Shown here in pieces: positions 53,742-55,085 of a DNA stretch of 64,000 nt. Origin of the DNA: Candidatus Kaiserbacteria bacterium (GTDB lineage: Bacteria > Patescibacteriota > Minisyncoccia > Phycocordibacterales > UBA2100). A program made the translations under genes and the position numbers. Position 1 is the first letter of the stretch; each line of letters starts with the position of its first letter. The DNA is taken from positions 439,072 through 503,071 of the forward strand of contig CP066682.1 in assembly GCA_016432285.1 (NCBI GenBank), written 5' to 3'. Under the pieces are notes generated by a model that was not told the origin of the DNA, did not search any database, and saw only the letters and a list, made by a program, of their open reading frames with translations.

Positions 53742-54086
53742 ATGAAAGAGGGGATCGACAAGAATTTCGACAAGCGGGCCGACCGCATCACGAAGATGGA
53801 TGACGACGCTAACATGAAAGGCGCGATCCTGAACGCCGTCCACCGTATCCCACCGGATTTCTATACCAAGCACAAATTCAAGGACAAGCACATCGATGAG
53901 TTCCACGAAAATCTCGAGGCGCGATTCCTTAAGGCCAGCCTCACGGTTCGTCCGCAAGAGCTTCGCGAGCTCTCGGTGGAGATCCTGCGCGACACCATGA
54001 AAGCGGCGGGCATCGAAGCCCCTGGCTTTCGAGACGAGTTCAGGGAGGCGCTCGAAGAAATGATGCGCGTCGAGCGGCATGCGTGA
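53742..54086 (+). CDS. hypothetical protein (114 aa) inside the atp operon
   Basis: Tightly coupled (1-nt gap after atpG, 8-nt overlap with the next gene). Confidence 0.5.
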   Translation: MKEGIDKNFDKRADRITKMDDDANMKGAILNAVHRIPPDFYTKHKFKDKHIDEFHENLEARFLKASLTVRPQELRELSVEILRDTMKAAGIEAPGFRDEFREALEEMMRVERHA

Positions 54087-54663
54087 GCTTTTGATCGCGA
54101 CGCGCAATCCCGGCAAGGTAGCCGAGATCAAGGCAGCGCTCCAGGGACTCCCGCTCACGTTTGTTTCACTTGAAGACACCGATGCGGGCGATGTGGAGGA
54201 AACGGGTGCCACGCTCGTTGAGAATGCAGTCCTGAAGGCGCGCGTCTACGGGGATTGGACCGGAAAGCTCGCGATTGCGGATGATTCCGGGCTGGAAGTC
54301 GATGCTTTGAACGGCGCGCCGGGTGTGGCGAGTGCGCGCTATGCAAAGAGCGATTCGGCGCGGATCGATAAGCTGCTCCGAGAGCTCGCAAGCGTCCCGG
54401 AGGCGCGACGCACGGCGAAGTTTCGCTCCGTGATCGCCATCCACGATCCGGCGATCGGAAAGACCGCGGTGGCGGAGGGAAGCGCCGAGGGGCATATTCT
54501 TTCGGCGCGAAGGGGGGAGCAGGGATTCGGGTACGATCCGATTTTTTTGTATGACGAGGCCCGGAAAAGCGGCGGGGAGATGAGCCGCGAGGAGAAAAAT
54601 GCGGTAAGCCATCGCGGCAAAGCGCTCGCGAAGGCACGTGAGCTGTTGAAACAATATATATGA
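54079..54663 (+). CDS. rdgB: non-canonical purine NTP pyrophosphatase (RdgB/HAM1 family)
   Basis: ATRNPGK, E..GATLVENA..KA, FGYDPIF motifs. Confidence 0.8.
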   Translation: MRELLIATRNPGKVAEIKAALQGLPLTFVSLEDTDAGDVEETGATLVENAVLKARVYGDWTGKLAIADDSGLEVDALNGAPGVASARYAKSDSARIDKLLRELASVPEARRTAKFRSVIAIHDPAIGKTAVAEGSAEGHILSARRGEQGFGYDPIFLYDEARKSGGEMSREEKNAVSHRGKALAKARELLKQYI

Positions 54664-55085
54664 ACGTAACGTATCCGATGAAATATCCTGGTGTGGGCAT
54701 CGGCGTGTATGTGCTAAAAGATGGCAAAGTGCTTTTGGGTCTGCGCAAGGGGCACTATCAATCGGGCACATGGTGCGCCCCTGGCGGCAAATTGGAGATC
54801 AACGAAACATTTGAGAGTTGCGCGAGGCGAGAAACGCAAGAGGAATGCGGCGTGGAGATTGAACATCTCCGCTTTCTTGGCGTGACCAACGACATCGACC
54901 CGCCGACCGGTTCTCACTACATTACCGTTGCGTTTGCGGCGGATTGGAAGAGAGGCGAGCCTTCACTCACGGAGCCCGACAAATTTGAAAAATGGGAATG
55001 GTTCTCGTGGGACGCGCTTCCTGAGCCATTATTCTTGTCCACTAGAAATTTTGCGGCGGCTGGGTATAATCCCTTCACTCTATGA
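54660..55085 (+). CDS. NUDIX hydrolase
   Basis: Nudix box [24 protein letters not shown] (GX5EX7REUXEEXGU). Confidence 0.8.

Follow-up and report, generated by a model that had tools for sequence, protein, structure and literature searches.

RdgB and Nudix hydrolase genes between atpG and atpD: a clade-wide variant of the ATP synthase operon in Kaiserbacteria-like Parcubacteria

The 64-kb stretch of DNA analyzed here (hereafter the window) comes from a Candidatus Kaiserbacteria metagenome-assembled genome (MAG), a member of the Parcubacteria within the Candidate Phyla Radiation (CPR). On its plus strand, at 49085-56715, lies a complete F1Fo ATP synthase operon, identified from the listing of open reading frames (ORFs) and from Pfam matches, in which the genes for subunits a, c, b, delta, alpha, gamma, beta and epsilon form one co-oriented cluster in the standard order; tblastn recovered the same order of atp genes in 80 relatives. 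The operon resembles the canonical bacterial atpBEFHAGDC arrangement in the number and order of its eight subunit genes, but differs from it in having short epsilon and delta subunits and three unrelated genes between gamma and beta, which make up an intact insert of 1.34 kb. These code for a protein of 114 amino acids (aa), hereafter ORF114, for a homologue of RdgB/Ham1, and for a Nudix hydrolase. A first-pass annotation of the window had proposed these three identities, and Pfam bears them out, ORF114 belonging to no family. We found that the arrangement is a clade-wide trait of Kaiserbacteria-like Parcubacteria, and is not peculiar to the window genome.

The genes of the cassette and their two atp neighbours are tightly packed (Table 1). 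Their junctions had been described as 1-nucleotide (nt) gaps or ATGA overlaps, which is correct for atpG/ORF114, rdgB/nudix and nudix/atpD, but not for ORF114 and rdgB, whose overlap is longer. The 1-nt spacing between atpG and ORF114 also occurs in two relatives (L081 and L082). ORFs on the minus strand run over the cassette as well; because the plus-strand frames hold the Pfam matches, the simplest reading is that these are chance ORFs of high-GC DNA.

Table 1. Genes of the ATP synthase operon of the window, its embedded cassette and the junctions of the latter.
Feature	Position in window	Strand	Evidence or detail
atpB	49085-49912	+	ORF listing
atpE	49994-50221	+	ORF listing
atpF	50356-50802	+	ORF listing
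atpH (delta), 130 aa	50805-51197	+	Pfam OSCP match
atpA	probable start ATG 51212, end 52780	+	Pfam ATP-synt_ab match
atpG (gamma), 314 aa, complete	52796-53740	+	PF00231 2.4e-78, profile 1-285 of 285
atpG/ORF114 junction	53738-53744	+	TAG (53738-53740), single base c, ATG at 53742
ORF114, 114 aa	53742-54086	+	no Pfam or NCBIfam match
ORF114/rdgB junction	54079-54086	+	8-nt overlap, ATGCGTGA
rdgB/Ham1, 194 aa	54079-54663	+	PF01725 3.1e-59
rdgB/nudix junction	54660-54663	+	ATGA overlap
nudix, 141 aa	54660-55085	+	PF00293 1.5e-24
nudix/atpD junction	55082-55085	+	ATGA overlap
atpD (beta), 456 aa	55082-56452	+	PF00006 3.3e-72, PF02874, PF22919
atpC (epsilon), 83 aa	56464-56715	+	PF02823 6.6e-18

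Concerning RdgB, the product of the window gene passes TIGR00042, the equivalog model of non-canonical purine NTP pyrophosphatases (181.4 bits against a cut-off of 145.35) and matches PF01725 with 200.4 bits (cut-off 22.5) over positions 1-185 of the 186 of the profile. All four active-site motifs of the family (TRNPGK, DDSGLEVD, FGYDPIF and SHRG) are present, and an alignment indicates that they are largely kept in 18 embedded homologues. Strict motif patterns fit only six of 19 homologues; the alignment shows conservative variants and no decay. By its full-length match and its motifs, the protein is alike to other members of the RdgB/HAM1/ITPA family, and its expected chemistry would be the conversion of (deoxy)inosine and xanthosine triphosphates, (d)ITP and XTP, to monophosphate and pyrophosphate (PPi). 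What sets the rdgB genes of the window and its clade apart from other family members is their position between atpG and atpD.

The Nudix protein matches PF00293 with 86.9 bits (cut-off 21.1), and its Nudix box (GX5EX7REUXEEXGU) is intact at residues 43-65. Of 14 embedded Nudix genes, 12 likewise encode an intact box, and two depart from it at the last glycine only. We took these boxes and the conserved RdgB motifs as signs of purifying selection. The best full-length matches among solved structures are AtNUDX1 (5gp0, 8.5e-32, residues 9-140) and NUDT15 (5bon, 8.4e-26). An assignment to canonical MutT was rejected, as the protein differs from this group by scoring below the equivalog cut-offs of TIGR00586 (33.8 against 97.9 bits) and NF008044 (31.6 against 148 bits). 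Because it is closest over its full length to AtNUDX1 and human NUDT15 (MTH2), with which it also shares the intact Nudix box, and falls below the MutT cut-offs, it can be placed as a putative member of the NUDT15/NUDX1-like group. Substrates in this group are as varied as 8-oxo-dGTP, thiopurine nucleotides and isoprenoid diphosphates. Both predicted enzymes are ordinary members of known families, and the 64-kb window holds no second copy of either rdgB or nudix.

ORF114 is an acidic protein predicted to be all-helical, and its sequence is identical to the hypothetical protein HYS26_02880 of a Candidatus Kaiserbacteria MAG. Structure prediction with AlphaFold2, as the first-pass annotation had suggested, yielded a helical model of five helices (pLDDT 78.7) with a low-confidence N-terminus, for which no informative fold match was found. 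The start codon is backed by a conserved N-terminus, which reads MKEGI in P0002 and in the ORF of L018, and MGEGI in P0006. An exhaustive HMMER search over 1.84 billion representatives retrieved five remote homologues of 106-131 aa (24-46% identity, E-values from 1.7e-20 to 8e-4), and those with a readable context lie directly after the C-terminus of atpG and directly before rdgB (L081/L082, L083, L084, L085). Weaker profile matches supported by their position were found in the first ORF after atpG in L001/L166, L018, L004 and L167, with L168 as a borderline case. The family counts about 10 members, all in Kaiserbacteria-like genomes and all right after atpG, starting 1-12 nt past its stop codon. 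In nine of the 10 known contexts rdgB lies just downstream, L004 being the exception. In many genomes rdgB follows atpG immediately and ORF114 is absent, so the two genes are not dependent on each other. Other soluble proteins of about 115 aa that occupy the same slot in relatives were considered as remote homologues of ORF114 and rejected, all hhalign probabilities being at most 1.6%.

The sample of relatives consists of 80 species-representative loci retrieved with AtpG as query, with about 13 kb of sequence per genome, in which the atp genes and the three cassette genes were located by tblastn. We define the near clade as those relatives whose AtpG is about 57-77% identical to that of the window, and the distant Parcubacteria as those at about 50% identity; an insert is any sequence of at least 250 bp at an atp gene junction. 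In this comparison of operon structure in relatives, which the first-pass annotation had called for, the atpG-atpD junction holds an insert in 31 of 38 near-clade loci. Inserts are also present at atpA-atpG (11 of 42) and atpB-atpE (10 of 34), and none was found at the other four atp junctions in near-clade loci. The gamma-beta junction is the main insertion-permissive site of the atp operons of this clade. In the distant Parcubacteria, eight of 34 loci have an atpG-atpD insert, none of them with rdgB or the Nudix gene.

In 22 loci, rdgB and/or nudix lie directly after atpG. Both are present in L008 (where rdgB is truncated), L012, L025, L028, L030, L031, L036 and L043; rdgB alone in L002, L003, L014, L018, L037 and L038, as well as in L001, L021 and L039, whose contigs end early; and nudix alone in L011, L029, L033 and L040, as well as in L006, where no atpD follows. 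A canonical short atpG-atpD junction is found in L007, L010, L015, L016, L019, L022 and L035. In a neighbour-joining (NJ) tree of AtpA, AtpD and AtpG, the loci bearing rdgB or nudix all fall in one clade, with the canonical ones interspersed, a pattern that fits ancestral presence of the cassette followed by repeated loss. Overall, more than 25 assemblies, independent of one another and produced by different studies, share the arrangement.

Some relatives depart from these states. The order at L167:3248-4603 is atpG, a 107-aa protein similar to ORF114, a Nudix gene of a second type, rdgB, and atpD, so that the Nudix gene stands ahead of rdgB. In L006, L020 and L023 no atpD occurs within 2.5-5.9 kb after atpG; other families of downstream ORFs are common to the three, and the operon is apparently split at the gamma-beta junction. 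This is the same break as in the split atp clusters of cyanobacteria and chloroplasts, where beta and epsilon are encoded apart; the window differs from these in that its operon is bridged by co-oriented, overlapping cargo genes. The longest ORFs of the atpB-atpE inserts are on the opposite strand (L016:2586-3032, L019:2385-2828, L028:937-1464, L005:2506-3093, L036:2706-3074) and gave no Pfam match where tested; if real, they would part atpB from the rest of the operon.

The embedded genes are closely interlocked across the clade. The overlap between rdgB and nudix is 4 nt in all nine loci with both genes, and that between nudix and atpD is 4 nt in the window, L011, L029, L033 and L040, the last four being scattered through the clade. 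The inserts are tiled by ORFs on the strand of the operon, with a median coverage of 93%. In a database of 5.8 billion proteins, the closest relatives of the window RdgB are 53-67% identical, and the five close homologues whose genes were examined (P0008, P0038, P0082, P0050, P0040) all sit between atpG and atpD. As a negative control, a separate metagenome scan covered 80 loci of generic bacterial rdgB (43-56% identity), none of which has atp genes in its flanks. An rdgB gene from Buchananbacteria, another CPR lineage, likewise has no atp neighbours and adjoins ruvA. The view of the first-pass annotation that such enzymes are unusual in an atp operon is thus borne out. In an NJ tree, the embedded rdgB sequences cluster apart from 44 non-embedded ones, with the Buchananbacteria sequence nested within their cluster. 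The first-pass annotation had reasoned that canonical junctions in relatives, with the cassette elsewhere, would suggest a recent neutral insertion. Canonical junctions do exist in seven relatives, but the conserved overlaps and the single cluster of embedded rdgB genes argue against a recent neutral insertion.

The gamma-beta slot holds other cargo as well: a toxin-antitoxin pair made of an MNT nucleotidyltransferase and HepT (L003:6946-7571), a PIN-domain protein (L014:4397-4921), four-helix-bundle proteins of the 23S_rRNA_IVP family (L005:6946-7302, L017, L024), a PaaX-like protein (L002), a PCC-domain protein (L060), as well as proteins with coiled coils, several small membrane proteins and unrelated acidic ones of about 115 aa. 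Nucleotide hydrolases other than those of the window recur among the inserts. A second type of Nudix is found in L012 and L167. In L006, where the atpG slot has the Nudix gene and no rdgB, the atpA-atpG junction carries at 3894-4457 an inosine/xanthosine triphosphatase of the YjjX/NTPase_I-T type (PF01931, 1.3e-39), and YfbR-like HD 5'-deoxynucleotidases lie at the same junction in L014 (1496-2287) and L027 (5121-5909). When these hydrolase families were searched against the 80 loci, 32 matches fell in the 69 kb of non-atp DNA inside the operon spans, and none in about 376 kb of flanks apart from five that immediately follow atpG where the operon is truncated or broken. The presence of five hydrolase families at two junctions is hard to square with pure chance.

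Taken together, we favour the view, to which we give a probability of about 0.6, that the window exemplifies a clade-wide operon variant in which RdgB and a NUDT15-like Nudix protein, preceded in some lineages by a helical protein, are expressed through read-through and termination-reinitiation. The cassette would be transcribed by read-through from the atp promoter, and ribosomes finishing atpG would re-initiate on ORF114, then on rdgB and nudix, and finally on atpD, so that synthesis of the beta subunit would stay coupled and both enzymes would be made constitutively alongside ATP synthase. They would hydrolyse deaminated and oxidised or otherwise modified (d)NTPs to monophosphates. PMC8080830 describes CPR bacteria as small cells with limited biosynthetic capabilities. 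Such cleaning may matter in an organism whose biosynthetic capacity is limited and which relies on acquired nucleotides, and co-expression would then be selected rather than neutral. The first-pass annotation had read co-expression with ATP synthesis from the embedding; as a selected feature this gains support from the independent capture of other hydrolases, the co-expression itself being deduced from gene geometry. As many related species share it, the arrangement is old and probably selected rather than a one-off accident.

Several observations weigh against this reading. Co-transcription and translational coupling are suggested by the geometry of the genes alone, and a promoter-like sigma-70 pair (TAGAAA-16 nt-TATAAT) lies at 55043-55070, in the 3' end of nudix and 12 nt before the start of atpD. 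Weak terminator-like hairpins also lie inside the cassette, and terminator-like sites are about twice as frequent as in shuffled sequence (19 against 8.9). Promoter-like sites are no commoner than chance in the region, and all promoter-like and terminator-like sites found are inside coding sequence. Within the cassette, nudix has a GC content at third codon positions (GC3) of 0.58, against 0.67-0.83 for its neighbours, and its codon usage agrees least with that of the atp genes (0.45); this could reflect weaker expression or a more recent replacement. Pairwise distances among rdgB and among nudix sequences show weak or no congruence with those of the atp genes (Mantel r 0.20, p 0.06 and r 0.03, p 0.41, respectively), the atpG control giving rho 0.58. 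The mismatch, which either saturation or exchange among relatives could explain, neither establishes strict vertical descent nor speaks decisively against it. The rdgB tree carries no bootstrap values, and seven members of the clade do without any insert at the gamma-beta junction. The enrichment of hydrolases inside the operons (binomial p 3e-21) is inflated, the queries having been taken from the inserts and the genomes sharing ancestry. Finally, the slot also carries unrelated and selfish cargo, which indicates that the junction tolerates neutral or selfish insertions.

This last point leads to neutral hitch-hiking as an alternative, in which a permissive gamma-beta junction in a compact, promoter-poor genome would have allowed one ancestral accident to persist with no selected link between the genes. 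The very mixed cargo of the slot, from the toxin-antitoxin pair and the 23S_rRNA_IVP, PaaX-like and PCC-domain proteins to small membrane and unrelated proteins of about 115 aa, agrees with such a scenario, as do the frequent losses seen in the seven canonical junctions and in the rdgB-only and nudix-only states; the cluster of embedded rdgB genes is also compatible with a single founding event. In cyanobacteria and chloroplasts, the atp genes are divided at the same gamma-beta boundary, which marks this junction as dispensable. However, neutrality does not readily account for at least five hydrolase families (RdgB, two Nudix types, the YjjX-type ITPase and the YfbR-like proteins) at two junctions and their absence from the flanks, for a locus whose slot has no rdgB but which carries an analogous YjjX ITPase one junction upstream (L006), or for the conservation of both overlaps and catalytic motifs. 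We consider it unlikely, though it keeps some weight. The opposite extreme, an island recently gained by horizontal transfer or an artefact of assembly, in either case confined to the window genome, could appeal to the lower GC3 and codon-usage match of nudix. It is contradicted by the comparative data, in particular by the number of independent assemblies that share the arrangement; moreover, the cassette is flanked by no meaningful direct or inverted repeats, no integrase or transposase is present, and the composition of ORF114 (GC3 0.76) and rdgB is like that of the atp genes. We give it hardly any credence.

A different possibility is that ORF114, and perhaps the enzymes too, belongs to the ATP synthase itself, as an assembly factor or as a regulatory or inhibitory subunit standing in for the C-terminal domain that epsilon lacks or for what delta has lost in length. 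This would agree with the constant position of the ORF114 family 1-12 nt past the atpG stop, with an epsilon of 83 aa reduced to its N-terminal domain and a delta of 130 aa whose match to the OSCP profile leaves out the first ~50 positions, and with the predicted fold of ORF114, a small bundle of helices whose N-terminus is of low confidence and which we take to be superficially like inhibitors of the zeta and IF1 type. However, the family has only about 10 members, whereas epsilon is short in all 65 relatives measured, with or without ORF114, which argues against a compensation for the missing epsilon domain. In many relatives rdgB follows atpG directly and there is no ORF114, and hhalign provides no tie to the other slot proteins of about 115 aa. 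Neither sequence nor fold revealed any likeness of ORF114 to the described ATP synthase factors AtpI, zeta, IF1 or the epsilon C-terminal domain. The proposal of the first-pass annotation that the 114-aa protein is a candidate accessory or assembly factor is therefore unsupported, given the lack of a known family or fold, the small number of genomes, and short epsilon and delta subunits whether or not ORF114 is present; we regard a role in the ATP synthase as very improbable. As rdgB is the only consistent partner of ORF114 besides atpG, a role associated with RdgB, or some other lineage-specific one, seems more likely than a role in assembly. A bolder extension would see here an energy and nucleotide quality-control operon, in which the gamma-beta junction, and less so the alpha-gamma one, acts as a capture site preferring NTP-cleaning hydrolases whose dosage would be tied to ATP synthase, and in which ORF114 and the other fast-evolving proteins of about 115 aa encoded just past atpG would act as new regulators linking F1 or RdgB activity. 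We find this improbable, and mention it as a speculation only.

A few further features of the window can be noted. The longest ORF for atpA opens with a GTG at 51107 and overlaps atpH by 91 nt; the start given in Table 1 is probably the real one, because most homologue alignments begin at residue 33-36 and the atpA of L081 is called at 522 aa. The delta subunit covers only positions 53-166 of the 172 of the OSCP profile, the N-terminal part of the usual domain being absent, and the delta of relatives aligns over the same residues 1-127. Epsilon consists of the N-terminal beta-sandwich alone, with no C-terminal helical domain, and its length of 77-89 aa in the relatives makes this a trait of the wider group. 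In the ORF listing of the window, atpI is not evident upstream of atpB. On the 3' side of atpC, the region 56848-60221 holds a small ORF and the genes of three proteins: one of 634 aa that includes a glycine-rich stretch, a hydrophobic one of 151 aa and one of 197 aa. The syntenic genes of L081 have SLT, RNHCP and Flavodoxin_2 domains. The flanks of L081 match those of the window on both sides, with a hydrolase gene upstream and the SLT, RNHCP and flavodoxin_2 genes downstream. Elsewhere, the window has seven tRNA genes (28222-28641, 33017-33537 and 42306-42377), four of them tightly clustered at 28222-28641.

Our literature search found no description of an atp operon with Nudix or Ham1 genes, nor of the ATP synthase of Kaiserbacteria. 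New, and likewise without a description in the literature searched, are the layout of the operon, its persistence throughout the clade, the repeated recruitment of hydrolases that clean nucleotides, and the small orphan family of ORF114. Few gene orders in bacteria are as conserved as that of the atp operon, and here a whole clade of ultra-small CPR bacteria keeps one of its junctions interrupted, so that the contiguity of atp operons should not be assumed when genomes of this clade are annotated. The small orphan proteins beside atpG form a concrete and testable set. The arrangement offers a natural example of how streamlined, promoter-poor genomes may express housekeeping enzymes, and hints at a tie between nucleotide-pool hygiene and energy metabolism where organisms rely on acquiring their nucleotides.

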